Source: Octopus vulgaris
Lineage: Eukaryota
Assembly: GCA_951406725.2 (NCBI GenBank)
Contig: OX597832.1
Location: forward strand, 6,634,001 to 6,698,000
DNA length: 64,000 nucleotides
Direction: 5' to 3'
Below the pieces are notes generated by a model. That model was not told where the DNA came from, made no database searches, and was given only the letters and a program-made list of their open reading frames with translations. Position 1 is the stretch's first letter. The number at the start of each line of letters is the position of its first letter. The position numbers and the translations under genes are program-made. Below, piece by piece: positions 19,029-64,000 of the stretch.

Positions 19029-19037
19029 TGAGGGCTG

Positions 19038-20177
19038 GTGAGGGCTGTGCAAGCCATGTACAGAGATGCCGTAAGCAAGGTTAGGGTTGGCAACATGTAC
19101 ACAGAAGAATTCAAAGTAGAGGTTGGGGTCCACCAGGGTTCAGTACTCAGCCCCCTCCTATTTATCATAGTCCTCCAGGCAATAACAGAGGAATTCAAGA
19201 CAGGTTGCCCCTGGGAGCTCCTCTATGCTGACGACCTCGCTCTAATTGCTGAGTCACTATCAGAACTGGAGGAGAAGTTCCAGGTGTGGAAGGAGGGTTT
19301 AGAATCGAGGGGCCTTAGAGTCAACCTAGCTAAAACCAAAGTACTAATAAGTAGAAAGGTAGGCAATCCACAAATGTCCTCAGGAAGATGGCCCTGCTCG
19401 ATCTGTAGAAAAGGTGTAGGTAGAAACTCTATAAGATGTACCCAGTGTAAGCTATGGACACATAAGAGGTGCAGCAATGTCAAAGGTAGGCTAACTGGGA
19501 AGATAGTCTTTATATGTGGCAGATGCTCGGGAGCATTGACCTCCGAAAATCTGCAGAAAACAACTTCCGTCACTTTCCAGGGGGAAAAATTAGAAGTAGT
19601 TGATAGCTTCCGTTATCTAGGTGACCAAGTCAGTAGTGGGGGTGGGTGCGCTGAGAGTGTAACTGCTAGAATAAGAATAGCCTGGGCAAAGTTTAGGGAG
19701 CTCTTACCTCTGCTGGTGACTAAAGGCCTCTCGCTCAGAGTAAAGGGCAGACTGTATGATGCATGTGTTCGAACTGCCATGCTACATGGCAGTGAAACAT
19801 GGGCCGTGACTGCTGAGGACATGCGTAAGCTCATGAGGAATGAAGCCAGTATGCTCCGATGGATGTGTAATGTCAGTGTACTTACTCGACAGAGTGTTAG
19901 TTCCCTAAGAGAAATGTTGTACCTAAGAAGCATCAGTTGTTGCGTGCAAGAGAGACGATTGCGATGGTATGGTCATGTGGCGAGAATGGATGAAGATAGG
20001 TGTGTGAGAAAGTGCCAATCCCTAGCAGTTGAGGGAACCCGTGGAAGAGGTAGACCCAGGAAAACCTGGGACGAGGTGGTGAAGCACGACCTTCGAACAT
20101 TAGGTCTCACCATGGAAATGACCAGAGACCGAGACCTATGGAAGTATGCTGTGCGTGAGAAGACCCGGCAAGACTAG
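19038..20177 (+). CDS. RTE reverse transcriptase, C-terminal 379 aa (5'-truncated), with an internal PHD-type finger
   Basis: QGSVLSPLLF, LYADD, GLRVNLAKTK, FRYLG, HGSETW, RRLRWYGHV and RGRGRPRKTW motifs; no internal stops. Confidence 0.93.
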   Translation: MRAVQAMYRDAVSKVRVGNMYTEEFKVEVGVHQGSVLSPLLFIIVLQAITEEFKTGCPWELLYADDLALIAESLSELEEKFQVWKEGLESRGLRVNLAKTKVLISRKVGNPQMSSGRWPCSICRKGVGRNSIRCTQCKLWTHKRCSNVKGRLTGKIVFICGRCSGALTSENLQKTTSVTFQGEKLEVVDSFRYLGDQVSSGGGCAESVTARIRIAWAKFRELLPLLVTKGLSLRVKGRLYDACVRTAMLHGSETWAVTAEDMRKLMRNEASMLRWMCNVSVLTRQSVSSLREMLYLRSISCCVQERRLRWYGHVARMDEDRCVRKCQSLAVEGTRGRGRPRKTWDEVVKHDLRTLGLTMEMTRDRDLWKYAVREKTRQD

Positions 20178-37507: not shown

Positions 37508-37671
37508 TTCGTGATGGAGACACAGTCAAGCATTATAGAATTCGGCAACTTGATGAAGGAGGTTTCTTCATTGCACGAAGAGTCACATTTCGTACACTGT
37601 CAGAATTGGTGGAACACTACAGCCGGGATGCTGACGGCTTGTGTGTTAATCTCAGAAAGCCTTGTACACAA
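37508..37671 (+). CDS. Src42A: Src42A/FRK-like tyrosine kinase exon: SH2 C-terminal half
   Basis: ttcctttcag| acceptor and caa|gtatgt donor; encodes (V)RDGDTVKHYRIRQLDEGGFFIARRVTFRTLSELVEHYSRDADGLCVNLRKPCTQ; phase 1-0. Confidence 0.96.
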
Positions 37672-37823: not shown

Positions 37824-37992
37824 ATTGAGAAACCTGTCACAATGGGTCTTTCCCATAATACTACAGACCAATGGGAAATTGCTAAGCATTCTCTAAAACT
37901 TATCAAAAAAATTGGTCATGGTCAGTTTGGCGAAGTATGGGAAGGTTTGTGGAACAACACAACTTCAGTAGCTATCAAAACATTAAAACCTG
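37824..37992 (+). CDS. Src42A: Src42A/FRK-like exon: SH2-kinase linker and kinase subdomains I-II
   Basis: ttttcag| and ctg|gtaagt; encodes [19 protein letters not shown]...[27 protein letters not shown]; phase 0-1. Confidence 0.97.
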
Positions 37993-40121: not shown

Positions 40122-40280
40122 GGACAATGGATCCCAAAGACTTCTTACAAGAAGCTCAAATAATGAAGAAACTTCGACACAGCAAATTAATCCAATTGTA
40201 TGCTGTATGTACCCAGGATGAACCAATCTACATTGTAACTGAACTTATGAGAAATGGTAGTTTACTGGACTACTTACAAG
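40122..40280 (+). CDS. Src42A: Src42A/FRK-like exon: kinase subdomains III-V
   Basis: ttaatttag| and aag|gtaatt; encodes (G)[52 protein letters not shown](G); 159 nt, phase 1-1. Confidence 0.97.
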
Positions 40281-42545
40281 GTAATTCTTGCACATTGTTA
40301 TTAATATTTCCCAGAGGATTAAGTATATTTTGTATACACAATACATATATACACACTCAACTTCTGCACATTAATATTAGGTACAGCATATCCACACATG
40401 AGAAACCTTCCTCAAACATATATATGCAAACATGGTGAAATGCAAACATTTTTTTGAAAATTACAAAGGGATTTGTGACCAAGCAACAGCAGATAAGAAT
40501 TTATTCTTTCTAACTATTCATAGTGTACTCCTTGTTACTATGGCCAAGTTTGAAGGACATGGTCCTGTGCTGGAAGTTTTCTTTTTTTTTTTTATCTTGT
40601 TGATCAGGTTTTATTTGACCCATAAAAAGATTTGATTATCTCTATTGCAAATGCACACTGATCAGTAACACTTATAGCTTGAAAAACTCCTCCATCAGTG
40701 ATGAATTGACATCAGCTGAAGTGCCTTATCTTATTTATTCCAGCTTCTTGCATTCTGAGTTCAGTTCCCATTGAATTTCCAAGTCTATCTTTCAGCCTTT
40801 CATAAATAAAATGCTATTCTAAGGTAATGGAACAGCAAAATCATTAAAAGTATCAAGCAGGAAGTCTTTTAGTATTTGTTAGGGCTCTTTACATTCTGAG
40901 TTCAAATCCTAGTGTGGCCTATTTGAGTGCTACACTTAATCCATTATCCAGTTTAGCACCATTGCCTGGCCCACAGTTAACTTTACTTGATTCCACTCTG
41001 TTTGTCGCAAGTTTTCAGACACTACAAATATTCTTGAGTGCTACACAGTCTAGCCTTAACTTTTGTATCTATTGTCATGTGACTTGTTTCATTTCATAGA
41101 ATTATGATCATTTGAACCAAGCTATATGTTTTGCTTATCAATTACTTTTTTCCTGATTTAAAAACTTGGACATTTAACTCGAATCTACAAAGTTCAATTT
41201 TTCTACTGGTGTACTCAGATTTTCTCTTCAAAATGAGTACACAAGGAATTGATCAAGTAAAGTTAGCTGCAGTAGTATCTGTGTATAGTTTATTGAACAG
41301 ATTATTAACAGATATGATATAATTCTATTCAAATATAGTAAAATATATAACAGGTTTGAGGAATGTAACCCACTTCAATATTCGAAATGTTTATGCCTAA
41401 ATTCCATATTTGAACTTTGTATATTAATTTGCATATTTAATTAGATATTGAGCTGATTTTTTTGTTCTGAAAGATAGGGCAACACAAGTAACTATCATAC
41501 TGAGTTTGACCATTGAACTGCTCAGAACTTTTTTTCGTTTTCAAAAGGAATTACATGACTCTTAGGGAGAGGGTATGACAGTAGATCATAAAATTTCATT
41601 TATGCATACCAAGTGAATTTAGTCACTTTTTTTTACCATCTCTGGTTATGGATGAAATTTTTACTGTACACTACATTTCCAAATGTCTATTAAACAAATA
41701 CACAATAAGTTGCATATCTGATTTGTTTATAAACTGAAAATGAGTAGAAAAGGTGATACTCAGTGCATGTTTCCATCAATTTATGTCCCAAATTTGAGGT
41801 TTAAAATTACAAAAAATGCCAGATTGTATTTATTTACAATAAATCTAGAATTGGTGTTCAAAGTATACAAATTTTGACTGAATGAAACATATTACCAAAT
41901 TTTTGAAATGTGACCAGTTTTCTACATGTCCTACGTATCTGAGATTTTGTTCTACTATATATATATCTCGATATCTATCTATATACACACACACACACAC
42001 ACAAAAATTTTACTTTATGCAGAACTCAAAATATAACTTTGTACCTAACATAATACTAGATATGCAACAAATATATGTACATAAGCACAACCATTTCATT
42101 TTTCTATACTGATTATATAATACACTATATTTTGATGTCCTTAATCTCCATGCGTCATTCATCCCCATCTTTCTTTTTTTTTTACATAAAAATACTGGTT
42201 TATTTTTTCCTTTTGATTACGATTTGTTATGATGCAATTTTTAAAATATAGCAAAATTTTATTGAAAGAAATTTATTTACATCTAATTGTTAATAAAATA
42301 ATTTGGGGAAATTGTCTCTCAGTCTAATTAGCAACCAGCAGGATTTCTATGATAATTCAGATATTAATTATTATTATTATATTATTACTGATAGTGAATG
42401 TAAAATCAGAAAGTTTGGACTAGTTCATGCATTAACTATTTTATGTTATTCATGTCAGTGGATTCAGTTTGTTGTTTCAACAAAGCTGATAGAATGCTGA
42501 TACTTCACAGTTTGAAGAAATTATTATTATTATTATTATTATTAT

Positions 42546-42870
42546 TGGTGGCGAGCCAGCAGCATTTCATCCATCTTTACATTCTGAATTCAAATTCTGC
42601 TGAGGTGAACTTTGCTTTTCATCCTTTCGGGGATCAAGCCAGCATCCAGTACCCTCTGTAAAATAGTTGACATCAGAGAGGGCATCCAGCTTTAGAAGTC
42701 AAACCAAAACAGATTATGGAATCTGATGCAGCTCTTGGCCTTGCCAGCTCCTGTCAAGCCATCCAACTCATTCCAGCTTCGAGAACGGACATTAAATGAT
42801 GATGATGATGATGATTGAACACTGAGATCAATGTAATCAACTATCACCTCCACCAAAATTATCATTATTA
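42546..42870 (+). mobile_element. SINE family N interrupted by an RTE tail (about 42645-42815)
   Basis: Family N core ctttgcttttcatcctttcgggg, then gagggcatccagc...(GAT)n, then gaacactgagatcaatgtaatc resumes the SINE. Confidence 0.7.
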
Positions 42871-42969
42871 AAGAATCTCTTCTTTGATCTTTTTTTTTTT
42901 TTTAATCTGAATCCTTGCCCATTTAGGTTTAGTAGATCTCTGTCTAAAATTTTACACCTTCAAGATAAT

Positions 42970-43250
42970 CTTCAAAAGCATGTTGGAACATCACCAAAGA
43001 GAATATGATAAAAAGTACAGGAACTGAAACAGCCCTGTTTAGTTCCAGTGGAAACGGAAAATGCCTTTGACTGCTAGATATCACTGTTGCCATCCTTCCT
43101 TCATGCTAAGATACTATTACCCTTATTGTTTTATCAAGCAGACCAACTTTTGGCAAAATTTTCCAAAGCCCTTCATGATTCACTGTATCAAACGTCTTGG
43201 TCAAGTCAATGAAGACCATATAACAGTCAGTATTTTGCTCACACAGGTCA
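42970..43250 (-). pseudogene. RTE-BovB-like RT fragment
   Basis: CEQNTDCYMVFIDLTKTFDTVNHEGLWKILPKVG resembles the RTE motif FIDLxKAFDTVxREGLWKIL. Confidence 0.85.
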
Positions 43251-45365
43251 TCTAGATCATATAAAAAGTTCAGATGTCTAAATTCCATTATGAAGTCATA
43301 GGCAAGATTTCTGAGGATTTTTTTCTTTGTTAATTTTGCAACACTTGATTGAGGCTTTTTTTTTTATATTCTACATTGTTAAAAATGTTTTGAGCATTCC
43401 GTCATATTAACTCTCATAGTCATTTGATATTTATATTTTCTCTTTAAACAAAAACAAATACATTTTGCTTCATTTTTAAGCAACAAATTTAATAGAAACA
43501 TTTATTTGAACTTTAATTTTGACATAGCTTTGATTTGAATTCCAGGCTTCCTATGTATATACTCATTCTTTGTTGCACCTGCCTCCATCATGTTTTTGCC
43601 TAATAAGAGAAGTTTTCATTTCACTAAATAGGAAATAAAGAACTCATTACCAGGATTGGCAAGACAGAATTTTCTCCTTAAGTTCTAGTAACAACTGCTA
43701 CTAATTAAATCACATATTTACTGGAGAAACTACTAAATAACCAAACCTCTCAGTCCTATAGAGCACTGTTGGATATCAATCTGATGTCACATAACTAGCT
43801 CTCCAGTTTACTATCACTGAAAAATGTTATCACAGCATAAATTGTTGATAACATATTATATAATGAGAAGCGAAACAAATATTATTCCATGTTTTCAGTT
43901 AATACTTAGCAGCAGAGAGAATAAAGTATCAACCTTTGAAATGTGGCACTGTGAGCTTGTATTATATCAGTGGTATTGGGCTAAGCTATAGATAAATCAG
44001 TTAAGCAAAAATAAAGAAATGACTTCTATTATTTTTTATTCTACCTATTAGGAAATTATCTTTTATTCCCATTTCATAATCGATTGCATAATGACATAAA
44101 ATGCGTCATTTGTAAAAGGTGTCAAAAGTTCATGCAGATATCCAAAATTGCTGATCTATCTCAAATGGAAAATATCTAGATAAAAGCATTTTATATCAGT
44201 CTTCAATTTTGGTTTAGACTTTCTGAAGAGAAAAAAGCTATGCTTGTGGTTTTGTTAGATTATCCTAGACTGAAGATATAAATAAAACCCAACCAATTCA
44301 AATTCAATTTGAATTTTTGTCAGGTTAATGATTGAGATACATAGATATGTAAGTTCTAGGACTAGAGACTGAGGGCTCTACATTAGATTACTTCATATAA
44401 AGAAACTAAATATTTATTAATCCAGACCAGTGAATGACAATATTTGTGGTATAGTTCCACATCAAAGTAACAGTTCTCTTTAATAGTGCTTGTCTTCAGT
44501 TGTTGATAAGAACAAACAATTTGGGATGTTAACATTTAAAATTTGAGTCATTTTTCAAATTGATTTCATTATATACACTTGCGATACACCAATCATTAAG
44601 TGATTTTAAGTGTACAAATAAACTAGAATTTTAACTCTAAACAGAGAGAATAACTTCTCACTAATTTCCTTGCATCACAAATTGGAAACAGTTTACTTTG
44701 GACATGTATCAAGTACTTTAGTTACTTCATAAATTAATTGAATATGCTAAAGTTTTATTTATTCATGTAAACATGTAACATATCTGCATATCCATAGACG
44801 TTTTTGTTCACTCCCATTGTGCTTCACTTCTCCCTCATCTCCCCAAATTCTCTTTCTTTCTCTCTCAATGATGTATCTTATTTCGATATCAGTGTATCAT
44901 TTTCGCTTTGCTTTTCAGCTAAAATGATTTATAACTGCAAAATCAGATATATTAATTAATATTTGAAACTAATTTCAAATATTGTTCTTTGTTGAACTTA
45001 TATCTTTACTATATTTATTTTTTCATCATCAAAATATTTCCAATATTTCAGGTTCAAGATTTCTTTCACTGAAAGATTTTATTAAAAATTTAAATATCCC
45101 TTATCATTCATTTAAAAAAAAGCCTTTTTTTAAAAAATTATTTTTCAAGTTCTATCCAATAAACTTAAACTGATGACTTATTTCTCATTTTTTCACAAAC
45201 AGTCTATGAGACATATAAACACATATTATTTATGCCATTTTATTTCTTTTGTTTTGTAAAGTGTGGACAAGCCTTTTTAACTACATTCTCTTTTCTTTTT
45301 TTTTATTTTCTTTTAATTCTCTAATCACCCTGATTAATGACGTATGATGATGGTTACTCACCTAG

Positions 45366-45374
45366 TGTCGGCAG
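45366..45374 (+). CDS. Candidate 9-nt microexon of the kinase gene (adds VSA)
   Basis: cctag|TGTCGGCAG|gtaagt; no AG between 45272 and 45363; upstream ttttaac plus a long pyrimidine tract; in frame at phase 1. Confidence 0.5.
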
Positions 45375-48300
45375 GTAAGTGACTGTAGAGGTGTGATAAC
45401 ACTAAAAAGTACTTAGCGCAGAAGACCAGAATAAGATTCCTGCTTATGCTATGAAAATCTACTACACTATAAGGTTTTCTCATTAAGTTTTGCATTGGAA
45501 TTTCATTCTTTCATGCACACACTACATTACTTACACGATCTGTAGACATTGCACTGCATTATATGAACAACAAACTCTTTATGAATTCTATTACCTCATC
45601 CAAATTACATTATCTTTATCTATGACATTATATAGCAAATATACATTGCAAAACATTTATAAATTATATTAGAATATTCCTATATTTTGTTGCACTATAT
45701 TGTCGACATACATGATCTACATGCATCAAATTACATATCATATAAGCTGGTAGAAATAAGCCTCTTAATAGAAAACAAGATGACATGCTATTGAATATCA
45801 ATTTTAGTAACATCTTGATTGACTATACATGTATATATTTTATAAATGTATACATTTTATAAATGTGTATTGAGAATCTGTATGATTCAATTGATAAATA
45901 CATCTTACAGATTTGAAATCTTATGCTTATGTGAAAATTTCTTTGAAACTATTTACTTTATTAAAATAGCTTTTCAGAATAAAATTATTAACATTTAGAT
46001 ACAAAGAAACAGGAAAAAAGAGAGATAAAGAAAAAAAAAAAGAAAAGGGTGAGGTATAGCAGCAGTAGATAGGAGGGGGAAATTGGCCACATACCCCAGA
46101 ACAAATTGTGTACTCAGTTGTACCCGTGACAGCATTGCCTTGGAGAATAGCCAGCAACACTCACTGCAGCAGCCACTTCCGGCTCACAGAGCTCATTACT
46201 CCAACAGACTGTCATTATCCCTATTTGGTGGAGGAAGTCTGTAGTACAGGGTCCTCGAACATCTGACGTCTGGACAGCAACTGGCTCAGTCTGATAGCGG
46301 CTGGTCAAGCCCTTATATTTATTGATCAAAATTATCATTGTAAATAATACCATACTGATGCTTATCAATCAGTTATTCAAATCTTGCAAAGAACAGCATA
46401 GTATAATTCCAATTTTGAGCTGAGATTTAGATGTTCATCCTACCAAGGGAAACTTTCTAATGAATGCCAGTATACATTATATGTATTCTCATTTTAGATA
46501 TATTTCTATGTATGCTTGTCAGGCTAAAAACAGAAGAACCACAATATGACACATAGCTTTACCTTTTTTCAAGATTAATCTTTAAAAAAAAGGAACTTTA
46601 ATGTCTCATCATCCTGGAATTTTTGTTAAAAACTTACCTAAATTTTAGTTCCTACATTGACTTTCAATTACATACTGATAAATAAAACAAATATACAACT
46701 TAAATAGTGCAATTACCCTCATATGTACATGCAACTACAAACAGATAAAGCAAAGAAAACATGCAAACACCCGTAATCATGACTATACAGATTAGACCAA
46801 CAAAGCAAACATCTATACTAATGCAAAGAAAAAAAGAAATGCCTAACCTCATATACATACTTATCACACTAACAGTAGTTTAAATGATTGTGCTTGTCAG
46901 CAATCACTAGTAGAGCTTTGAAACTCTAGTATAATGAGGTGTGTTTGTGTTGTGATAAACAACTAACTCTCAATCTCTCTCTCTCTCTCTCTTATCCAGC
47001 AGACAAACATTCAGCACGTTTTTTTGCTTATCTTCTCTTGCCAAACACATCTCAATCTTTCTCTACTGCTCTCCTCATCATTATCATCATCATAATTATC
47101 ATTACCAGCAGCTGTATTAGTACCATCTACATTGCTTCTTTGATTATTAGATTAATTAAAACTAATACACTCCTCATAACTTTTGCCTTTGTGATAAGAT
47201 TGCTGCCAAACAAGTTTCTTTTCACATATTCTGAGAGTTGATCTTAAGTTCTTATTAGACTTGAAACTCACTGAAATCTAGTTTGGCACAAAAACTGGTA
47301 TAGTGTAGCGGGTCCTCTTCATTTTACTGACTACAATTACAGACTATTAGTAGTTAAGGTAAACAAATAACAATGTTGACAATATGGTTATTGCTTGCTA
47401 TTGTTAACATTGCTCTTTAGTTCCTTGTTAGTTTGCTGAAAATGAGCATATATTGATGCTGTCATAACCATAATTACAATTACTCTTTATCATTATAATC
47501 ATCTTCAATATTACAGTTAGTGCTATCTTCAACAGAACGTCACTCTCTTTAATGTCATTACCACTACCATCATCATCATCATCGTTATCATTACTACTAT
47601 TGCTACTGCATATTTCTGACACTTTATTTTATTCTGCTGTATTTTTTCCTCCCTTTTTAATTCTATTTCCAGTTTTTCCTTGTTTTGGTTCTTTTGTCCA
47701 GCTTTCTTTTTTTGGTGATGGAATATTTTGATGAAAAAAAAAATTTTTACTTTAAAAGCCTTTATTAATCTAAACTGAATATTTGAAAAGATACTCCAAA
47801 CAAAATATTGCTCATTAATCAAGCATTTAAATGATTGTCTCCTTAGGTTTGTAGCTATAGAAAAAGAATTTAGTTTAATGATTTCATATTTTTAAAAAGT
47901 GTTGCATCATCCACTATACTTTTTCTTTTCCTTTTAAATATTTGGAAATGTAGTGATGAGTTTCTGATTATATTAAAACTCAGGTGCTATATTGTTAATT
48001 AATTCTCATGTTTTTCTACAGATATATAGGCAATCAATTGTAGTTAATAGTATTTATGTTATAGTATTGTCTATTTAGTTGTTGAAAAAAGATTAAAGAG
48101 AGAGTGCACAGGACTGGAAAGTTCCCATGTCAGCATTGAAAATGATCAGCTGAAATACTTGGGCACTTGTGTAAGAACTTCCCAATTCTATCACCATTCG
48201 TATCAGGTCCCAAAGGGTGCATTTTTTACCAGTGAGATGAGGTGGGGGTTTGAACTCCAAGTGTAGAAAGCTAGAACAGTTACATAATTGTTCCATACAA

Positions 48301-49419
48301 ACATGTTGTTTGTATGAAGAATGTTAGTCATTTATAATTTGATCATATTCTTCAAAATCCTTTAGACTAACTGAGAATACTGTCATGGTAACTATTCTAG
48401 TGTAGCAGATAAGTAACTTAAGGGGGAAATTCATAAACTCGTGCCATAGGTGTAAACATTAATAATACCCAGTAACTAAGACACCCACATTGCTTATATT
48501 AAAATTCCTAAGTATTTATAAATTAGATATAAAACTTCTTCATGCTGTCATTCCACGTTTTTCTCTTCCCACTTTCAAAGTCTGTGGTTAGAATATTTAT
48601 ATTTGAATCAGATACAAATTTTTATTTCCCTCTCCTCTGATTTTACCCATGCAAAAACCACTAATATAGTACTTGTTCTTTAAAATAGGAAAATTATAAC
48701 ATTTCCATTTAGTTTAGATTCCATAGAAGGCTCATTTTTAATCATCTTTCCAAGATCACTGGATGTTATGGAGCAACATTAAAATAGCTTCGCACGTGCA
48801 TGAAGTGTTCTGTGATGTGGTAACTGCTTCTTGGTTGATGAACAGAAATTATTAACCAGGCATTCTGTGAATATTCCAAAAAACTTTCATTTTTCAGACC
48901 TTGTCATATACAATATGGTTTCTATTTTCAAAAAGGATATCTTGATTTTAGTCTGTATTTCTGGCCTGATTTTTATCTTTCTTTTTTTCTTTTCTTTTTC
49001 AATTAATCAATTATTTTAGTAACTTATTTATTTCAGTCACTATACCTTTAAATAATTGCCATCAAGAAAAATTAATATTTATTTAATAAAGTTAATTAAT
49101 TTAAAATATAATTTTGAAAAAATAAAAGAAAGATTTTCTAATATCTTTAACTTTTAAAAGTTAAGCTTCTAGTAAGCCTTATAATTTCAATACATTCTTT
49201 TATATAACTTGAACACCATCATGAAAACCTTAGGTTAATAAACTCCTCTGCAATTAATACAACTAATTATTACTGGTATCATTAATTGGGTTTATAACTG
49301 GGAGAACTGATATCAATATTAGTAGTGAGAATTGGCAATTGTTTCAGTTAATTGACTAACTAAAAATTAAATGTAAACTAATTACCTACCAGTACTAGGA
49401 TATACCAACTTTACTATTT

Positions 49420-49760
49420 TTTTTACTGCTTTTAGTTATTAGGCTGCAGCTTAATAGGACACTAGTTTTTAGTCAATTGCATTGTCCTAGACCCTCTGCC
49501 AGCAAATAGTCTGGTACTTATTTTATTGACCCCTTGTGAAGAGAAAAGTCCGTTATGTTTGCATGGAAGATAACTCAGTTGATCATGAATACTACAATGT
49601 GTTCCTATTCAATGCACTGTTTTTGTTCCCTTCATGTTGGGGCTTCTGCACAGTTTCCACTTAACAAATTCCATTTATAAAATATTGGTGAAACTGAGGC
49701 TATGGTAGAAGTCACTTACCCAAGGTGCTGTGTAGTGGAATCAAACCCAGAGCCATGCTG
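49420..49760 (-). mobile_element. Degenerate SINE family C
   Basis: gggcttctgcacagtttcc...ggctatggtagaagtcacttacccaaggtgc is the reverse complement of the family C head. Confidence 0.65.
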
Positions 49761-49935
49761 CTGCTCATTTAGTAACCCATCTCATATTCTTAATAGTGTG
49801 TTGTTTAGTTACTATTACAGTGCATAATTACCCCAAGTTTTGTCTTCAGTTACCTACAAGTAACAAAGTAACAACAAATAAGAAAAACTTTCAATTCAGT
49901 TGAAATGTCTCCTTCTCTCTCTGTAAATACCATTG

Positions 49936-50330
49936 TCATTTAACATCTGCTTTCCATGCTGGTATGGGTTAGAATGGCTTGACTGGAACTGGTAAGCTGA
50001 AGAGCTATACCAGGTTCTAGTCTGAATTTGGTTTGGTTTCTATGGCTGGATGCCCTTCCTAACACCAACCACTCTGAGAGTGTAGTGAGTACCTTTTACG
50101 TGTTGCCTGCAATGCCCACAACTACGATTTCACTTGGCTTGACAAGTCTTCTCTAGCACAGCAAATCAACAAAGGTCATGATCACTTGTCATCACCTCTG
50201 TGAGGCCCTACATTCGGAGATCATGCTTCATCACCACGTCCCATGTCTTGTTGGGTCTACCTCTTCCACAGGTTCCCTCCACAGTTAGAGATCAGCACTT
50301 CTGTATGCAGCTCTCCTTGTCCATCTCTCT
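49936..50330 (-). mobile_element. RTE 3' end (ORF end plus tail)
   Basis: Minus strand encodes EGTCGRGRPNKTWDVVMKHDLR, followed by the tail gtggttggtgttaggaagggcatccagcc. Confidence 0.9.
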
Positions 50331-50373
50331 GTAAATATATATATATAATGTGTGTGTGTGTGTGTTTCTGTAG

Positions 50374-50431
<58 letters not shown>

Positions 50432-50539
50432 ATCACATGACCGACCAGACCATCAGATGTTGTTACACATCGCTGGTCACAATGTGTTCGCATTGTTTTA
50501 GCCTTCGAATGACGCCACCCCGCTGGCTAAGTGAGCAGG

Positions 50540-50585
<46 letters not shown>

Positions 50586-50983
50586 TTATTTTGGTTTCAC
50601 TTGTAGATACACAGAATTATAATTTCACTTACTTAAGATTAACACCTCAGTCATTTCTACTACTTTATTATCATTAAAATATAAAAAAATACTAATGCCA
50701 GTATTATCATAAAAAAGGGGATGTAGTTAACTTTTTGCTACACAGACATGCCAGCATGCCTTCAAAAGATATTAGTATTAAATCCATTTGAAATTACTAG
50801 AGTTTCTTTTTTTGTCTTTTGTTCTTTTTTTTTTTTGCTGCTTTTTTTCCAGTGATGATTCAAACATCTCACAATGGTCAAATTTGGGGAGTTATTAAAT
50901 AATGGTTTTCTTTTTTTTTTTTTAATCTTAATTTTTACTTTATTTTTATCTTTTGTCCTGCTTTTTGCATATTTAATTGTTAG

Positions 50984-51004
50984 TTAACATTGCAGTTTAT
51001 GATG
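50984..51004 (+). CDS. Candidate 9-nt (50996-51004, VYD) or 21-nt (VNIAVYD) microexon
   Basis: ttgcag|TTTATGATG|gtaagt, with an alternative in-frame acceptor gttag| at 50983. Upstream T-rich tract contains TGC motifs. Confidence 0.5.
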
Positions 51005-51844
51005 GTAAGTGTGCTATTTTGTATTCGTTGAGAACTAATCTAAACTTCAACAAGTTGTTAATTATTATTGTTAAATGCAGTTTGAACCAAAACAAAATGA
51101 TGACTTGTTATTGTTTTGCTTCACTTTTTTCACTGGCTTTTTTTTGAAAGTTTTTCACTTGTTGGAAATGAAGATGTTGTAACATAAGTTTTTGCTATTC
51201 ATGTTTTCATTAACTTTGTTTTCCTCCATCAATATTGAAAAGCTTGGAACTGGTTTACTAACTTTTAACTTTTGTTTATCTCTCTTAGTATGAAACACTG
51301 CTAGAATATTGTTTTAAAATGTTTGCTTACTCATGTACTAATATTATTATATTCACATTTCTAAATTGATAAAATGTTTGTGCTTATTACCTCCTATTTA
51401 ATTGTACTTATATAGCAACTGTTATTATCTTCCTGGTAATTATAGGATGGGTTAGATAGGTTTAACAACTTGTCAATTATATGGAGTGGTGACATATTAA
51501 AAAACAGCATTCTTTTGTAGTCAAACGGGTATTAACTATATATTAATCCTCAAATTAGATTTTGGGATTTGTTTATGCCAATTGCCTAACAATAAAAGCA
51601 TTAACTTCCTCTGGGGCCTTATTTAATACATCAGAACTTATGACGTGAAAAGAGTGTTTTTCATTTGTTTTTCTGCTACTAAAACATTTTGCAAATAAAG
51701 GGAGTCAATTTTCTCAATTTCTCAACGTAACATTTTCTTTCGTAAAACTGAACAACCTTCTTGATTTCATCTTAAATGTAAGCTTCCCTTTTGTAATAAT
51801 GTTTAGTTGTTTCACATTGTTTAAAGAATAAATCACAGACATTG

Positions 51845-52225
51845 GCATGGTTATGTGCTAAGAAGTTTTGCTTCCCAGCCACATGGTTCCAGGTTCAGCA
51901 CCACTGCATGGTAACTTGCAAGTGTCTTCTATAGCCCTAGCCAAGTGTCTTCTATAACCCTAGGCCAACCAGAGCCTTCTGGGTGGATTTGGTAGATGGA
52001 AACTGTTGTGTATGTGTTTATATATGTGTGTGTTTGTGTTTTTCCCCTCACTCCACCACTTGACAACAGGTGCTTGCTTGTTTATGTCCCTGTAACTTAG
52101 TGGTTCAGCAAAAGATATTAATAGAATAGGTAACAAAAATAATAAGTACTGGGGTCAATTTGTTCCAATAAACCCTTCAAGGCAGAGCTCCAGTATGGCC
52201 ACAGACCAATGACTGAAACAAATAA
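51845..52225 (+). mobile_element. SINE family C, near full length
   Basis: Aligns along its length with 57867-58322; small internal duplication of caagtgtcttctata. Confidence 0.85.
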
Positions 52226-53241
52226 CTGGAAGCCATAAGCAATTGCATATTGATCCACAACACCTATGTAAGGTACAAAAACAAAATTAAAATAAATTAG
52301 TCAATACTAATTGTATAAGCCTTGTATTTATAATATACACACAGTCAACTCATTGGGGATTTAGAGCATCAGTATAATCTGCATGTAGTATCCTCAGGAT
52401 ATGTCAACATGACAGAACTCATGCTACTAAATCAGTAATGTTAGTGCTGATGATCTCACAATGAAAATAGCAGTTATTGAATAATTTTACAGTGAAAATC
52501 TCTTTCAGTTGCAGTCTTTTGCATCCTCTGCTCTCCAGTTTGCTATGACTAAAGGTTTTGTTTTTTTTAATGTTAAGGTTAAATATTTATTCCCTGCACC
52601 AGAATGTTACATAGAATCAATTGCTTAACCTTTTCCAATCAGACATATCGTTCACATCTCAGCGCATTGATTTATGGAGAGGAGAGAAATATTGTGATAC
52701 ACATGCCTCCTTTCCTTAGAGCATTAATTGCACAAGTGAAGAGAAATAGCTTACAGGTGGGAATCAAGAGCCAAGTCACAAAAGCCCTATCTCTGTTTTG
52801 CTGAAGCTACTAACTTATTAAAAGGCAAACCCTGATACCGGATAAAGAACACAGTAGTAATAAGAAAATCAATAAATAAGGCTGCTTTATTTCTTCTTCC
52901 CTCCTTTCTTCAAAAAATTCAGAGAGTTTCAAGAATCTAGTTCTTAATGCTGATTCTACTTTGATCCTTTATGTACTGGTTCCTATATTTGGTCCATCTT
53001 TCAATTACTTCTCAAAGAGAAACATTACTGTTGAGAAATATAAGGTATGTTTTCTAAATAGTTTATACTGGGTTTGCTGTTTCCATTAACTCTCTTCATG
53101 CAACACTATTGAAGTATCAAGTTCTTGCTAATAAAAGAGTGTTGGAAATGGTTCTATATATCCTAAAGTGCAAAATTGCAACTCATTATTTTTTTTATAT
53201 TCTCTATAAGACATACACTCACAGACCCTCTCCCCCTCGTT

Positions 53242-53272
<31 letters not shown>

Positions 53273-53836
53273 GAAAAAAACTCAATATATATAATATTTT
53301 TTGCTTTTTATTATACACACACACTGTTTTAATGATGCTAATGTGGGAGGTTGATTCTATTGATGTAATGCAGTGAACATTGTACCCAAGTCCCACCAAG
53401 GAGATATGGGTTCAACTCCCACCAGCTTTCACATTTTTACTTTATCATGTTTGAACTCTTTGTAACTGCATATTTCATTTTAAAACTCAAACACATATAT
53501 ATATATACATACACATATATATATATATATATATATGTGTGTGTAATTTTACTTCTCTCTGTCTCTCTCACACACATGCGCGCACGCACTCACACACACA
53601 CACACACATTTTCTCTCACACGCACAACACACAGATGTACATACTTTTCTCTCTCATGAACAGTGAAAAATGTGTTATTCGACTGAATATGAGATCAGAG
53701 AATATGTTAATTTCCATAATGAGCCTGGTGAGTCAGCCACATCCTGTATGTATGTGAAAGCTTGATGTAAATCTCTTTCTTTGTTATTATTCATCCCCTC
53801 CTATAAAATGATGCAGTGCCTTTTAGCTTTCATTAC

Positions 53837-53888
<52 letters not shown>

Positions 53889-56419
53889 TAGCTCTCATTA
53901 CTTCTCTCTCTCTCTCTCTCTCCTTCGTGTTATGTTTTTAAATCTATATATTGAAGGCTCCCTTTCCTTTTTATTTATTTGTTAGGCCTCAGTACACGAT
54001 GTAAGCTAGTTGTTATAACACCTACCACATAACAAAACGGACTTAAAACATGGCAGTTACTCTCTTGCCCAAACACCCTGGATGTTACACACACACATAC
54101 ACATCATGCATTTGTGTGTGTGTGTGTGTGTGTATGTATATATCTGCATACATGCATATGCACACACACACACATACACTAATACACATATATATGGTAC
54201 ACTGAAATTCATTCCTGAACATATATAAATACTTGCACCTTTATCATTTCCAAATAAAAAGTGTGAGTGTGTATTCTAAACAATTGAAAAGTTCCTAGTC
54301 ATTTGTTCAAAAAGGTAAAAGTAAAAAGCAATAAGGTGTTGAGAAATCATTGGAGTTCAAGGTGTCTAGTACTTGGTTTATGTCAACTCAAGGCAATTGG
54401 AAAACATACCCACTTTATTCTGATGAAGTGTTCAACATAAACTGTTAATTTACATTTTACACACACACACACATACACACATACACACACTATCTGGATA
54501 ATTAACTATTAACTCTTTGAGAACATCTGTGGTTGAATAAGTGAAGCAGCTGTGGTTGAATAAGCCATCTGACATATTTGTTTTGGGACCAAGTGAGAAA
54601 TGAAACACTTCCATTTCTGTTGTAGATGGGTGAAATACATACAACCATGAAGAAATGTATCTAATATTAATGAAATTCCTCCCATCAAACTCTTATTTGG
54701 GAAAATTCCTCTCTTTAAGTATTTCTGAATCACTTTTATCTCAAATATAATGAAGAGAAAATATTTGCTTCACCTGTTGAGTGGGATTTTCAAATTTCCC
54801 TTAAATTCCTTGTCCTAAAAATTGTTGCAAGTTTGGGTGGTGGGGGTTCAGTTTTTTTGAGTTTTTTTTTTTTTTTTTTAAAGCAACAGATCACCACACG
54901 ATGGTCCACATAATGAAGGCTAGAATGTTTTTTTTATAAGGAAGTTCAATCTAATCCAACCCAATATGCAAGGTTATCCTATATTGGGAAAACTGGGTGT
55001 GGAGTTTGATTCTGAATAATATGATACCAAAAAGAGGATCTTTTGGTTCTTACTTCCTATTTACTATCATATTTTTAGTCATTGTTTAACCCAAGTCAGT
55101 CTTAACTGAATAGATCCAAGACCAAAAGCATTCAGTGACAACTATCACAATTTTTGTATATACAAGAAGAAATTGTTCAATGTTTTCTTCAGTTTTTAAG
55201 ACAGTAAGATATGATTTGAGGAGAATCTGGCTAATATTTTTTGCACATCAAGCAATAGTTGAGAGGATCCCTTATTAATTTTGGCCTTATACCTAGTTTT
55301 TCAGCATAAAAATGTCTTCAATTTCTGCTCTAAACCTGAACTCACTGGCTTTTCTTGTCTTCTTTGTAAATTAAAAAATAGTTCTTATCACTTTTATCAG
55401 TGTTACCCCTAAAGGTGTTCATTTTACTGTTTCCTAGACCCAAGTCACTATTTTGTTCTTCTTTGTTCACGTTAGTTCTCTTCCTGTTCACGTGAAGGTT
55501 TATTAGTGTTTATCATTTTATAGTAATTAAAGTAATCATGAGCCCAATATGTCTGAAAATGATTATTAATAAACACTCCAATACATATATTACATTCTAT
55601 TGAAGACAGATTGTTCACAAAATAATAGGAAAAAGAGTGTCAGAGTAACTAGCTTTAAAAAAATGCCTATGGGCTGTTTCATTTCACAAACCCACTAAAC
55701 AAATAGTGCAATCATTTTTTTTTTAAACAATAGTATTTATACTTAATGCTCTGTCTTGTGACCTCATCATTAAAATTTGCCAAAATTTACTGTTAATCAC
55801 TTTTAAACAAAAATTTGTCCTCCATTATGATTTCATAGTCTTTTTTTTTCTTTCTCTTTTTTTTCTGTTAGTCAGTGATGTAATAGTTTTACATTTTCAT
55901 TCAAATCTATCTGAAATCTTTGATTAATTTTCTGAAAATTTTCACCTTACAATGCAACAATCTGATAATTTATTCTGATTCTCCAGTTTGATAACCTATC
56001 AGTACAATATCTCTATTTCTCTCTTTACTTGATGCCAAGTCTTTCTGTTAAATATATCATCTATGTTCTGTGTCAAGTTTAAATTTGTACTGAAGCTGTC
56101 CAATGCTACACCACTCTACAATAATCATAAAATTTTACAATAAACATTTCTATAAAAGAGTGTCTCTTCCAAGTTGACCATTATCACGTTCCCTAGATAC
56201 AGAGCACTTCAGATGTTTTGATGTTCGTGAACCTAATCAATGCAAATCTAAACAACTTCACCAAGTTTGCCTTTATACATGATGCAAGTTTTGATGATAT
56301 TAGTCGGAATCGGTGAAAATAAGAAGCTAGATTCAAAAATCGATTATGAATTTAGTTTACTAGGAACTGAACTATACTCTATAGATCTATATGCCCGTTT
56401 TATTTAGTCCTCAGTCATG

Positions 56420-57510
56420 ACCTCCAGTAGTGCTTACAACTATCTTGGTCTTCCATGCATCTTACTAGCTGTCCAGTTTAATATATCCCCGTATGTTGGT
56501 GTAGAACACCTCTACTGTTATGCCCATATGGTGGCTTCCATATTACCGGCTGGCTGGCTAAGATCGTCTGGTGTCTCCAGCAACAATAAGCCAACCTCAT
56601 TCTTATGACTGCTATTTTCTCACTCATCCTTTGTAACCCCTACAGATGATTGTTGCTAACATTTTCATTCAGTTTACTGTTAACTACTGCTTGCCACATC
56701 CTGATATAGCATCCGTTCAGAGACTTCTGCAGGGTAATCATCAAGGTCCAGCAATCACAGATTCTACAATTGCACTGAAGCTAAACTTGATATGGCCATG
56801 TCATTCAGAGCCTTTCATGCTTTTACCTTCCTTGCTTTGATGGGGTTTTTTGGTCTGATGAATTGGCCCGTGATCTCAGGTATTTGAATTCTGACTTACT
56901 GCAAAGCAGTGCCTCTTGTTGGATGGTCTGGGAGAATATTGTTGACAATGACCTTGTTTTCATGTCATTTAACCCTTTAATATTTAAACCAGCCATATCC
57001 AGCCAAATATTCTACCTCTTTTATGTTCAAACTGACTAGATCCAACATCTTACACCTACCCTACATAGTCATTCGAAAGATAAACAATCACGTCGTCACA
57101 ATCTCAAAGTTATGAGATAATGCATGATTAATTCAAAACATTGTGAATAAACAAGCATTACATTTGACAGAATAATCTGAATGCTAAAGGGTTAACCGAA
57201 CACCAGTGTTGGCACACTCTTTCTCCACTCTGTTTAAGAGCTCCTCGCTTGCTATGCCTATCAGACAGCATGCTGATAGCCAGGTCCATAAAGACTATAG
57301 CAAGGAGTTGTCTAGACCCCAAAGGTATAACGATAAAGCAAAGTTCCTGTTCCAAGCCATTGTTGGCTTTACCAGGACTGCAATGAAGAGAATGTCTCTT
57401 GTAATAACCCTGCCAGAATGTTGTTGTCATCTGGGGATCACTACTTTTGTTCTTGTAGGCCACTGTAGTTGTGATATAGAGAGAAGAAAGCACATCAGAG
57501 AACCTAAGTT
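56420..57510 (-). pseudogene. Old RTE-clade RT relic interrupted by a MITE
   Basis: Minus-strand remnants ILAGLLQ (cf. AGVLQGD) and RMRLAYCCWRH..LASQ (cf. RRLRLAGHCxRH). Confidence 0.6.
56969..57195. mobile_element. piggyBac-type MITE
   Basis: TTAAccctttaa...ctaaagggTTAA; 227 bp; homologous to 6937 and 38129. Confidence 0.85.
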
Positions 57511-57866
57511 GTAGTGTGTTGCTGAAAGATAAATAAATGATCCAAAATTACTTAAAGTATCAACAAATTGTTTTTTGTTGATAACAATCAGATATATGAT
57601 GATGGTGATGATGATTGTGTGTCTATATGTGTGTTCAACTAGTTATGTGTTAAGGTGAGAACAATAACCTTTTTTAGTTATTCTTTTAACTATTCCCACT
57701 TGATTCATGATTGATACATAATATGATTAGTCATTTAAGTAAATTAAATATAGGACAAGCAAAAAAACTGATTATATGATAAACTTTGTCTTTCAACAAC
57801 AAAAACTAGATAAATTTTCCAATTGATCTTAAATTTAACATTATTTTAATATATATTATACATATA

Positions 57867-58050
57867 GGCGTAGGAGTGGCTGTGTGGTAAGTAGCTTGCT
57901 TACCAACCACATCGTTCTGGGTTCAATCCCACTGCGTGGCACCTTGGGCAAGTGTCTTCTACTATAGCCTCGGGCCGACCAAAGCCTTGTGAGTGGATTT
58001 GATAGACGGAAACTGAAAGAAGCCCGTCGTATATGTGTGTGTGTATATAT

Positions 58051-58102
<52 letters not shown>

Positions 58103-58322
58103 CGTATATGTTTGTGTGTCTGTGTTTGGCCCCCCAACATCGCTTGACAACCGATGCTGGTGTGTTTAGGTCCCCGTAACTTAGCGGTTTGGCAAAAGAG
58201 ACCAATAGAATAAGTACTAGGCTTACAAAGAATAAGTCCTGGGGTCGATTTGCTCGACTAAAAAGGTGGTGCTCCAGCACGGCCACAGTCAAATGACTGA
58301 AACAAGTAAAAGAGTAAAGAGA
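57867..58322 (+). mobile_element. Young full-length tRNA-derived SINE family C with a central (TA)n
   Basis: A box gtggctgtgtggt, B box gggttcaatccc, gcaccttgggcaagtg core, CpGs retained; many homologues in the window. Confidence 0.92.
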
Positions 58323-59299
58323 GATATATTTTTTAATATGTGTAATATATATATATATTAATGAAAGTAATTGTATTAAGATAGGTAATAGGTGGTGGTG
58401 TTCTGACCACTATATTATTGAAAGCATTAATTTGCTGCCTCTAATACTCTTGATTATACTTGGGTATAGGCATGACTCTGTTTAAGTACTCTAGTTTACA
58501 ACCATGTAGTTCTTGGTTCAGTTCTACCACACTACACTTTTGCAAGTCTCCAGGTCAACAAGTACTTTCCAAGTGGAATTTGGTAGATAGAAACTTGCAT
58601 GGCAGTTCGTCATATGTATTTAGGAATGTCTGTGTGCCTTTTGTTGATTTATATTGGCAGAGAACATAAACATCAGTGTAAAAACAAAAATGAAAAACAA
58701 TTCTTTTCCAACAAAGTCCCTTACCTTGGGTTAAACATTCTGTCAGTCTCACTGTTAGAAATACTGAAAATCAATGATCAACCTGTTGGAAGCCTATAAC
58801 CAATGATGTTAGTGTTAAAAAATCACTATATAAAATAAATAAGCTTTACTGCTATATAAACCATTGTCCTTGTTGACTTTAATGCAGACTTCAGATTACA
58901 ACCACTTAATTACAAATGATCTGTATTTTGTCTCTTTTACCAACAATGGTTCTGGCTCCCCTGGACTTCCTAATTATATTGCACCTAAACTGAAACCTAC
59001 TTCTATTCTGACTGCTTAGGAACTATACTAGACTCACTAAATCTTTCCTCCTTGGTTTTGTATTCTCTGGAATTCCTTCTCATGCTTTTATTCTCCCCCA
59101 CACACATACACACCAACCGTCAATTGTAAAAGTTCAAATTCAATATTTTACTATATCACATCCAATTCTGTTACCCTTATTCCCACAGCTCATAGGATAA
59201 GAAGATCCTTATCAAATTAACTAGAGAAAAAAATATCTTTTTTAGTATTCTAATACTGGCATTGACTCTGTGATTGGTTGGCATTCCATTGACGAGGAG

Positions 59300-59800
59300 T
59301 TCCACCTCTCATTTATTTAACACTGCAATTAATTCCCACTTAGTACGTTGTGCCAGCTCAACAGACAGTCTAGTCTCAACAGTACAAATACACACTCACT
59401 GCTCATACCAGGGAAACAGTCTTTTGTGTTATCCTTTCTAGTTATGGACAACACACCACTAAAACTATCAAAAGTCAATGCTTCAACTCTATTTGCTGAT
59501 CATCTATGAAACTTAAGACCTGCAATAGAGTATGGCTCTCACACAGCACATACGTATCCTAAACAATATTATAACAAAACCTATTCAACTGACTGGCAAC
59601 GAAACTCTCAGCAGCACATTAAAAATGTGCCCCACAGATGTGCTGTCTTCTCTGTCTTTGTTACAATAGACTGATTCTCTGAAGTAATGAGTTGCATATC
59701 ATCTCCTGCCAGGATCTCCCATTTCTTCTCTTTGTATGCTACAACAAATGGAATGGTCATGGTTGGAATACTTTTCAAAGAATGAAAAACTATCATTTAA
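59300..59800 (+). mobile_element. Possible heavily decayed LINE RT relic
   Basis: ttaagacctgcaatagagtatggctct translates as LRPAIEYGS (cf. IRPxLEYGS); boundaries are uncertain. Confidence 0.35.
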
Positions 59801-60386
59801 AAACAAATAGATCAGCACATAGGGAGAAAAATTCTGGGGAGTTAACTGTGCACAAACAAAGAGAATCTCAAGTAAATAACAAAAAGAGTCACCCCAGCAC
59901 CATAAATCTCACACACTTACAAACAAGCAACACATAGAATCAAGAACAGAAATGTACTTTCAATTGCAACAGAACACACCACTGAGCTAACTACAAAGTC
60001 TCCAGATCAGACATCATTTTCTGTCTCACAACTGCATCACAAACTATTTCTTTGGCCAACTTGCCTGTCATAACAACACACACTCGCATATCTCCGAACA
60101 AAATAGGCAAAAAAATCTGTTACAAAATTGGAAAATAAAATGGGGACATTTTTTTATCAAGAATTAGTTCAAAGAATCCAGCAATACTATAATCACGAAA
60201 GTTGACACTGCAGTACATACATTCAGCAACACCACAACCATCAACACTACCATCCTATGTTGTATAGGATTCTGCAGTAAAATACATTCAAGACCAACAC
60301 AGTCAGGAATGTAGACAGTACAGTACACCACTAAACTCAGCTGGTGTTTAAGTAATGCGTTTGTGGATAGTTGATAGGTTGGGTGT

Positions 60387-60431
60387 GGTGCTGATGAAAG
60401 AGCAATAATTCTTGAAATATGCACGTACACC
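60387..60431 (+). ncRNA. Type I hammerhead ribozyme motif (solo, third sequence family)
   Basis: ggtg-CTGATGA-aagag[caataa]ttctt-GAAA-tatgcac-GTA-cacc. Helix I is ggtg/cacc, helix II has 5 bp, and the triplet is GUA. Confidence 0.65.
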
Positions 60432-61349
60432 CATTTCCTATTTTTTTCTATCTTTGATCACATTGTTTACATAGACATATTTGTATATGAAACATTGTAA
60501 CTTGCAGTGCTGGCTCTGAATTCTATTGAAAATCTATAGAGATAAACTTAAAAATGAGTATATAAATATATATTCAATAACACTACATAGACATGTCTCA
60601 TATATGCAACGTCACAAGCACTAGCATAGACACTGCAGTAAATACATTCAACAATACAATATCAATGATAACGAAGATAATGCAGTACATATAACAACAC
60701 TACTATCAAAGTAGCTACTACCTGCTAAAAATAGCAGCCAAATCTTTCTTAAATTGTCTCCATGAAGGACATGTTGGATGATATGGTCCTTAGTCTGAAA
60801 TGTGTATTAAAAAAGTTGGGTGGTCACAGCTAGAATGCTTTTGCTCATAATTCTCTTTGATCTAGACTGACTTGAGGGCCAAACGATAATAGAAACACTG
60901 TAGTATATACATTTAATAACACCACAATCATCATCATGGGTTAAACAGTATATACATTTAACAGCATAGCTGCCAACACAGACTGCACAGTATTCAACAA
61001 CACCAAATAGATACCACAATACATTGAACAGTGCCACCATTCCCAGCACAGATATTACAGAACGTATATTCAACAACACAGCCACCAATGTAGATGCTAC
61101 ATTCAACAACCACACAATTACAAGAGTCTCAATTTATGAGAAATAGCAGCAAATCTCCCTCAAATTACACTCTACCATCTTAGAAAAGGGCATGCTGGAT
61201 AATGTGGTTCTAGGTTCCTTGCACATAGGGAAAAGAAAGGATTGTTTCAGCTGTTGTGTGCCTTTGAGTATAGGTCTGCTTGATCAGATCTGACCAGGGG
61301 CTAAACAACAATAGCATAGATACTACTACATATCTTCAATAATATCACA

Positions 61350-62240
61350 TACAAAGCAGTACTCAGAAGTAACCAAGAAATGTTCTGTGGTGGTCAAGCT
61401 TGTTGTAGTTCAGGCTTCCGTCACTAGAAGCCACCCTCAGGCGTTAGTATGCAGACCAGTGTCATCAAGTGAAGTCATACTGCCACTTGTTTTGCAGTGT
61501 TTCTCCCCTGTTCGTTGATTTTTGCAATGGGTGAAACAAAGGAACAGCTTGCTTCTATGAAATTCCATTTTCTGCTGGGGAAAATGGCAGCCGAAACAGT
61601 TGTCATGCTTCAGACAGCTTACAATGATCTTGTGCCATGAGCAAAATCCAAGTTTACAAGTGGTTTTCACACTTTAGGAATGGTCACTTGTCACTTGAAG
61701 ACCAACCTTGTTCGGAGTGTATGTCGACCTCCCGAATGAATGAAAACATCATGAAAATTCATGAACTGATCTTGGAAGGCCATCACTGAACAATTAACAA
61801 ACTTATTGATATGACATATGTACTGGAGCTCCTGCCAACGAATTTTGAGTGAGGAATTGCAAATAAAAAGAGTTGCAGCAAAATCTGTGCCTTGCTTGTT
61901 CATGGAAGATCAAAAGCAGTCATGATTGAATGCGTGTTGTGAACTGAAAGAACAGTTGGAAATTGATCTGGAACTCTTTTTGAAAGTTGTCACTGGTGAT
62001 GAAAACTGGTGCTATAGAATTTGTAGATGTGGAAGAGGTGGAGGAAAATAAAACAACAGAGGTTTTAAAAGGCATCACTTTTCCAAGAGTTCCAGCACTG
62101 CTTTGAACAGTAGAAAATGTCTGGACAATGCATTGCTTCAAATGGAGAATACTTTGAAGGTGATAAAAGTGTAAACATGTAAAACCAATTGAATAAAATA
62201 ATACTGCAAAATTCTGGTTTCTTTTGGGTACACCCTCATA
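61350..62240 (+). mobile_element. Internally deleted mariner transposon
   Basis: TA ends and degenerate TIRs; remnants LLGKMAAETVVMLQTAY, RVAAKSVP, VVTGDENWCY and CIASNGEYFEGDK; the catalytic middle is deleted. Confidence 0.88.
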
Positions 62241-63489
62241 CACACTACATTACATACATTCATGACATATACATTATATGCATCCAACACCACTGTGACC
62301 AACATAGATGCTGCATACATTCAATGCACCACAATCATTAGACAATGCAATAAATACATTCCATTAGTTGAGAGGGGATTGTATCTGATAGAAGAAAAAG
62401 TGATGAAATAATTGGACCATTGCTACTGGATTAACAAGGTTAAAAATTGGAAACAAATGAATGCACAAAGAGAAATATATAAAAGAAAAGAGTAGTTGAA
62501 TTTTCCATTATTAATTAATATTTAATATCTTTTAATATCTCTACTGCTTAGTATCCATAGATATTGTAACATTATTTATATAAACCTGTGTGTTAGCTGT
62601 AGACACTACAAACACACATTTGCATGCAATAGTTAGTAGTTTATACAACTATCACTTACATTGTACTGTGTCTCTGGTTCAAGTCCTCAGTTTCAGATAG
62701 GTACTATGAGTATGTTATTGAAGACTGCATCTTAAGTTTTACTTGTTCTACATTCCAAAACACTTGCAAATGAGAAATATCAGCCATAAAGAAAGGTATG
62801 AGCTGTGAGTTTAATGAAATGACCCACGTGGGTATTGAAATGGTTTGCTATTGCTCTTTAACATAGGTACATTAACTTGCTATACTGAATTAAAATATCC
62901 TCCTTGGTTATTCAAGTAGATTGATATTATTATTAGTACAATAGATGAGTGCCAAAGAGGTGAGTCCTCAACCAGTTGTGGATGTTGGAATTCATCTCAC
63001 TTGGTTACTGTGCTCATGGGAGCACCCATTTACTTTCAAACAGAACTGCAATTTTTGTGCCTACTTTGGAAAATTCAAGTCAAGTTTATTCTTCTTCTAG
63101 AAATGTTACATTACTTATACAATGCATCTTAGCCATTTAACTGACTAAGGTCACCCTACTATGATGCAACTGCTTTTTACTTGTTCATGCTAACTTTTCA
63201 TGTGTTTATTGATACCTCAATAGGAAAATTGAACAATTTTATCAATAAGATGTTGAAATTCTGATGATTTTTTATTGATAATTGAGGAGAGAGGGTGCAT
63301 TTCCAGTGTGTCTGTTTTCCTACTTTTCATATGTGCTTTTGTGCCACGTTTTATTATGTACATGTATACATACACATGCAGTCTTCTAACAATAAAACTA
63401 GCTAGATAATAAAGTTAAATATTTTATTTATTTCTGCAGATGTTATTTTCCTATTAGCTAGGTCTGGATGAAGGGGGTCAATGCATAAG

Positions 63490-63990
63490 GTCATCACAGG
63501 TTCTCCATGATAAAACTTATGCTGTTAATGTTCCAGTGAAACTATTGCAGGTTGATGGCTGTGAAAGAGACTTGCATGATGAGAGAATTACATGTGTGGT
63601 TGAGGTTTTGTGGTGGAAAAGCTGGGTAGGATGGATGTAACATGGGTGACAAGAGGTGAAAAGCCTAGTGAATCAAAAGTGCTTGGCTCAAGCTCGGCCA
63701 GCTCCAAGAAGCAGAAACCATTCTGTTGATTCATAGGGTGGCTTTTCTCTGGATTTCATCTGAGTTATCACTTGTGTGCAGCAGAAAACTCATCCCAGAT
63801 GCATGAATAGTTCTCCATTGTGGGTCTCACCTGAGCCTTGTAAATGACTTGTAGTTGTTGAGAGCTGAAGTATTTGTGGCTGCAAAGAGAAGGGGGTCAG
63901 TCTTTGAGATGTAGTCTAAGTCATGTTAACTATGTATAGTAGACAGATAATCAGTTGGTTGATCTTTCCAAATCACTGATATCCAACAAA
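63490..63990 (-). pseudogene. CR1/Jockey-type LINE RT C-terminal relic
   Basis: Minus strand reads YFSSQQLQVIYKAQVRPTMENYSCIWD...DEIQRKA (cf. LYKAQVRPxMEYCSHIW). Confidence 0.75.
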
Positions 63991-64000
63991 AGCATTTGCT

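Follow-up and report, generated by a model that had tools for sequence, protein, structure and literature searches.

The window analysed here is a stretch of 64,000 nucleotides (G000:C19:6634001-6698000) from a 2.8-Gb animal genome. The host gene has the domain order SH3-SH2-kinase, and its exons match P0121, a protein that carries the name Src42A for both O. vulgaris and O. sinensis. The gene is the Src42A/FRK tyrosine kinase. All its domains were located on G000:C19, where the full protein is spread over about 200 kb. An open frame of 381 aa inside an Src42A intron (window 19032-20177, + strand) carries a YADD-type motif and is presumably LINE reverse transcriptase-like. The features relevant to the site under study are as follows.

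37508..37671 (+): constitutive Src42A exon, second half of the SH2 domain (tblastn with P0121)
37824..37992 (+): constitutive Src42A exon, SH2-kinase linker and kinase N-lobe (tblastn with P0121)
40122..40280 (+): constitutive Src42A exon ending ...LLDYLQ G with a phase-1 donor; 5' flank of the microexon intron
40281..64000 in the window (+): phase-1 intron of 24,487 nt, whose end lies beyond the window at L001:767 (G000:C19:6698767)
45366..45374 (+): sister 9-nt microexon VSA, transcript-supported; identical to the VSA insert of database proteins
50804..50852 (+): upstream U tract with TGCTGC and CAG, a strong competing acceptor (AG 50851-52), 90% pyrimidine at -25..-5
50853..51004 (+): alternative exon of 152 nt that shifts the frame and reaches an in-frame stop after 16 codons (sequence only)
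50905..50966 (+): U-rich tract of 62 nt, ending in UGC motifs (50959, 50966)
50984..51004 (+): candidate 21-nt microexon VNIAVYD with a TAG acceptor (evidence: sequence and chance estimate)
50996..51004 (+): candidate 9-nt microexon VYD with a CAG acceptor (evidence as for the 21-nt form)
51005..51010 (+): consensus donor GTAAGT
L001:768-946: next constitutive Src42A exon, starting GKGRTLKL

The candidate lies on the sense strand of the phase-1 intron, at the YLQ|GKGR junction. The initial annotation had described a T-rich tract of about 60 nt followed by two acceptors 12 nt apart, both keeping frame, and a G|GTAAGT donor. All of these were located: the tract is 73% T and 84% pyrimidine, the acceptor AGs are at 50982-83 and 50994-95, and the donor is at 51004/51005. 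With either acceptor the exon fits phase 1, is free of stops and reads VNIAVYD or VYD. Three TGC motifs had also been named and are present (50959, 50966 and 50991), but the third is just the TGCAG acceptor of the 9-nt form or exonic in the 21-nt form. The AG-free zone measures 92 nt before the 21-nt form, while the 9-nt form has a second AG at -14. UGC stands at -25 and -18 of the 21-nt form and at -37, -30 and -5 of the 9-nt form, and the pyrimidine content at -25..-5 is just 67% and 57% for the two proximal acceptors. In favour of the 21-nt form, its acceptor is the first YAG past the tract, with UGC at -25/-18; in favour of the 9-nt form are the CAG acceptor and a length equal to that of the sister VSA exon.

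Ranking of 1,645 microsatellite-free windows of the 204-kb locus by T content put the 600-nt window at 50801 second among non-overlapping ones, and the site itself at the 99.6th percentile. A DNA search of the own genome with the candidate region, in which simple repeats were skipped, returned the region itself and one low-complexity match (L014, 77% over 77 nt), with no second haplotype and no transposon source of the site. RNA folding of the candidate and VSA microexon regions gave z values of -0.31 and -0.50, which indicates no special structure.

The sister exon was found 5.6 kb upstream of the candidate. Its VSA insert occurs at the YLQ|GKGR junction in RefSeq O. sinensis isoforms X1/X2 (P0123, P0124), in O. 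bimaculoides (P0130) and in two Logan-derived proteins (P0008, P0134); the RefSeq records are XP_029648313/4 and XP_014775612, and the Logan proteins are more divergent, being 94% identical to Octopus. The candidate and the VSA exon share the intron, the phase, the 9-nt length, the donor G|GTAAGTG and a long upstream U tract. They differ in that the VSA exon is present in gene models and has a CTAAT at -45 and no TGC within 130 nt, whereas the candidate has UGC, lacks CTAAY and is absent from the fetched proteins. UGC is therefore not the mark of the proven exon at this locus.

The junction accepts several inserts, as VSA, VV and VSAVV were all found in cephalopod proteins. Among the 15 listed of the 18 members of the cephalopod cluster, five carry VSA (one of them together with VV), four carry VV alone and six have no insert. 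The VV insert (RefSeq O. sinensis X1/X3 and O. bimaculoides isoforms) corresponds to the last 6 nt of the intron (L001:759-767, G000:C19:6698759-6698767), which in this genome are preceded by CTG and not by AG. Three origins are conceivable: use of a TG-AG tandem acceptor, loss of an AG in this genome, or an artefact of how the gene models were aligned. Tandem acceptors of this kind, with the TG within 28 nt of an AG, are described for humans in the available part of PMC2374985. A separate 6-nt VV microexon was also sought and rejected, as the intron contains no AG-TNGTNG-GT/GC. At 44500-44505, AG-TTGTTG-ATAAGA could serve as a VV microexon only after A-to-I editing at the donor, and this position, upstream of VSA, is in the wrong order for the VSAVV isoform.

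Aligned to c-Src, the insert falls at KGE-TGKY. In an AlphaFold model of the VSAVV isoform (P0123; mean pLDDT 66.9, 40 sequences), it sits where helix 337-346 ends, preceding the loop that leads to helix 355-374. We take these helices to be alphaD and alphaE, respectively. The model thus places the candidate junction at the predicted end of alphaD, in the 'kinase-insert' loop. We know of no SH2 motif that Y-D-G-K fits.

To estimate how often such a site arises by chance, both strands of this genome were searched for look-alike sites, once in 60 held-out loci (1,200,000 strand-bases) and once over 2,768,000 strand-bases in total. The held-out loci contained 74 G|GTRAG donors that have a YAG 3-27 nt upstream, or 1.5 per intron length, and the total contained 182. 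A middle filter required this YAG to lie at a multiple of 3 nt and the best 40-nt window to be at least 75% pyrimidine. It left three held-out sites, which corresponds to 0.061 expected per 24.5-kb intron (upper 95% limit 0.18), and six sites in the total. When at least one TGC and an AG-free zone of at least 50 nt were added (the full rule), the held-out loci yielded none, with an upper bound of 0.075 per intron, and the total yielded none apart from the candidate. Under looser rules 0.2-1 site is expected per intron, with about one for the loosest (any last exon base, pyrimidine at least 70%). The thresholds were fixed after the site had been seen; the held-out loci were not used in setting them, yet the features were picked with the site in view. 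In view of the looser-rule counts and of this choice of features, the odds are shifted roughly 10- to 20-fold in favour of the candidate, which is not proof.

In an earlier scan of 1,568,000 strand-bases that included the Src42A introns, the middle filter returned the candidate, the VSA exon and three other sites, none of them in Src42A. Since VSA is found in gene models and Logan proteins, this indicates that the Src42A intron hosts microexons and that the filter recovers a real one. A further microexon-like site of 21 nt was noted about 80 kb downstream (L009:4119-4139, + strand), with a 90% pyrimidine window, a 145-nt AG-free zone and G|GTAAGT.

The insert itself was not found in the fetched proteins. 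None of the 15 listed members of the 18-member cephalopod cluster is a VYD or VNIAVYD isoform, and yet the RefSeq models of that cluster did capture the 9-nt VSA exon. Records that bear VSA and lack VYD are the main evidence against the candidate. The strings QVYD, VNIAV and AVYDG are absent from all 278 fetched proteins, which include these 15 members, and no VYD-type insert appeared in a search of shorter proteins (35 matches) or in ten further clusters. The downstream exon was present in at least 19 sequencing runs among the 24 entries listed, none of which is on record as RNA. A description of the candidate exon was not found in the searched literature on microexons with Src42A, octopus or the kinase insert; supplements of eMIC studies and VastDB-type tables may already list it.

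Outside the cephalopods, 80 metagenome loci with the orthologous exon were compared; 47 covered the intron in full, 21 in part and 12 not at all. Its position is widely conserved across these loci. Neither a site comparable to the candidate nor a VSA-type site was found in the 47 complete and 21 partial introns (60,855 nt of metagenome contigs, with short introns from distant animals); these introns hold 14 donor-plus-acceptor sites, and not one of the 14 has a pyrimidine window of at least 70%. Because the introns are short and the animals distant, the result only suggests that microexons at YLQ|GKGR are a cephalopod feature. The same junction carries a 36-aa insert in Plutella isoform X3 (P0170), and Littorina Src42A (P0156, P0160) has a tyrosine in the same loop, reading YLQGYKGR. 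Another junction of Src42A, ARVIK|EDEY in the activation loop, has optional inserts in other molluscs (P0154, P0159, P0164, P0167 and P0214 against shorter isoforms): VE in three gastropod isoform pairs, VN in a clam and DSGTVVGT in a chiton. The corresponding octopus intron (L001:947-5812) contains no such activation-loop candidate.

The initial annotation had further ascribed an eMIC-type signature to the site. In PMC8797185, eMIC exons are characterised by an extended AG exclusion zone, a long tract and UGC close to the 3' splice site, and a strong CUAAY branch point and a UCUC tract are given as enrichments, UCUC in both fly and mammals (PMC8797185, PMC12871342). The signature is only partly borne out. 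The AG-free zone, UGC, a long set-back tract, weak proximal acceptors and an in-frame length of at most 27 nt are all present, but CUAAY and UCUC are absent: no CTAAY occurs within 150 nt upstream, where only the weaker YTRAY is seen at -62, -56 and -11 (numbering of the 21-nt form), and no TCTC or CTCT lies closer than -117. The genome does encode the eMIC domain (PF15230), which scored 32.6 bits against a cut-off of 27 bits at G000:C25:37317492-37317626 (L075); here the octopus Srrm234 gene has its eMIC/SRRM_C domain exon. If the candidate is a real microexon, eMIC control is rather probable.

Taken together, the proposal of a tyrosine-encoding microexon stands in part. Strand, phase, statistical rarity, the anatomy shared with VSA and the eMIC domain in the genome speak for it; its absence from the 15 listed cluster members speaks against it, and the 152-nt form had been overlooked. 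We see about an even chance that the site is a real, unannotated, frame-preserving microexon of octopus Src42A, of either 9 nt (VYD) or 21 nt (VNIAVYD).

The main alternative is a chance or decayed pseudo-exon, in which a consensus donor follows a low-complexity U-rich stretch by accident in a 24.5-kb AT-rich intron and no meaningful splicing takes place. This is a serious possibility, though short of probable. The candidate is missing from every fetched isoform, and chance alone would yield 0.2-0.3 G|GTAAGT donors per intron that have a YAG 3-27 nt upstream (0.2-1 sites under the looser rules). A low-complexity repeat at another genomic position (the L014 match) is similar to the tract, and 64 kb had been scanned for the initial annotation, which raises the chance of one match. 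However, the full combination was not seen again in 2,768,000 strand-bases, and the site is on the sense strand, keeps frame with both proximal acceptors and lies in the only intron of the gene in which a microexon is known. An unspliced site would amount to an ordinary, if well-formed, pseudo-exon. Descent from the neighbouring exon, by which the candidate would be a tandem duplicate of the VSA cassette and its mutually exclusive partner, appears very unlikely. Both exons are 9 nt long, have an identical donor heptamer and align without gaps around the exon, but only 8 of 21 positions agree once those dictated by splice signals are set aside, which is near chance in AT-rich DNA, and the alignment is not significant. 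Moreover, VSA and VYD together would stay in frame, and at 5.6 kb apart the two would not be subject to steric exclusion.

An unlikely reading of another kind is that the donor pairs chiefly with the upstream acceptor at 50851-52, giving a 152-nt poison exon subject to nonsense-mediated decay, with the 9- and 21-nt forms minor or neuron-only. This acceptor, which the initial annotation did not mention, is the strongest for the donor at 51005 and is out of frame. Its 90% pyrimidine at -25..-5 exceeds the 67% and 57% of the proximal acceptors; of 31 acceptors as strong in 204 kb, only two are followed by a G|GTRAG donor at 50-250 nt; and a transcript subject to decay would be missing from protein sets. 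Against this, a functional exon that contains a 62-nt U tract would be unusual. A 24-nt exon from the same acceptor (50853-50876) was rejected, as its donor GTCAAA is far from the consensus.

If the site is indeed a microexon of Src42A, its distal U tract and UGC motifs may allow the eMIC form of Srrm234 to activate the weak proximal acceptor or acceptors in neurons; in other cells the exon would be skipped. With the exon included, a tyrosine would stand in the loop after helix alphaD; that this tyrosine is a phosphorylation site is speculative. Because the gene models miss the exon, its inclusion is probably low or confined to some cell types or species. A broader proposal, to which we give little credence, is that, in a Src-family kinase with a short loop, cephalopods have put together a small modular kinase insert out of independent splice units (VSA, VV and VYD/VNIAVYD). 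The neuron-specific, eMIC-driven unit would then supply a phosphorylatable tyrosine and one donor would switch between a stop-containing exon and an in-frame microexon. If true, this would be a convergence both on the inserts of receptor kinases and on vertebrate N-Src.

Several known systems offer a comparison. In the longDE tyrosine kinases, the alphaD-alphaE kinase insert holds functionally important or regulatory phosphorylation sites, according to the accessible part of PMC8662651. That kinase insert domain has the identical structural position; it differs in that only 3-7 optional residues are involved here, and the loop is short in nearly all fetched Src42A relatives. The vertebrate N1-Src microexon, as far as the available excerpts describe it, is likewise neural and lengthens a Src-family kinase by a few residues, but it is inserted into the SH3 domain of c-Src, whereas the candidate affects the kinase domain in the Src42A/FRK branch. 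With the neural microexons that depend on eMIC (Srrm234 or SRRM3/4), the candidate shares a length of at most 27 nt, frame preservation, the AG-free zone, the set-back tract, the weak 3' splice site and UGC, as these are given in PMC8797185 and PMC12871342. Its very long flanking introns and consensus donor set it apart from the fly eMIC exons, which have short introns and weak donors. In Drosophila, the same gene family contains a 27-nt exon (DmeEX0006556) that tables S2/S3 of PMC8797185 give as dependent on eMIC. Its upstream donor lies 439 nt from the acceptor chr2R:6009063, which is taken to be the start of SH2, and the YLQ|G junction lies 612 coding nt past the start of SH2. The fly exon is thus probably in a different intron, and it would be parallel to the candidate rather than homologous. 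If real, the octopus exon would be a small handle on cephalopod eMIC splicing and on the role of the alphaD-alphaE loop in Src42A, and it would represent the third independent recruitment of a Src-family kinase to a neural microexon programme, after vertebrate N-Src and fly Src42A, at yet another position.
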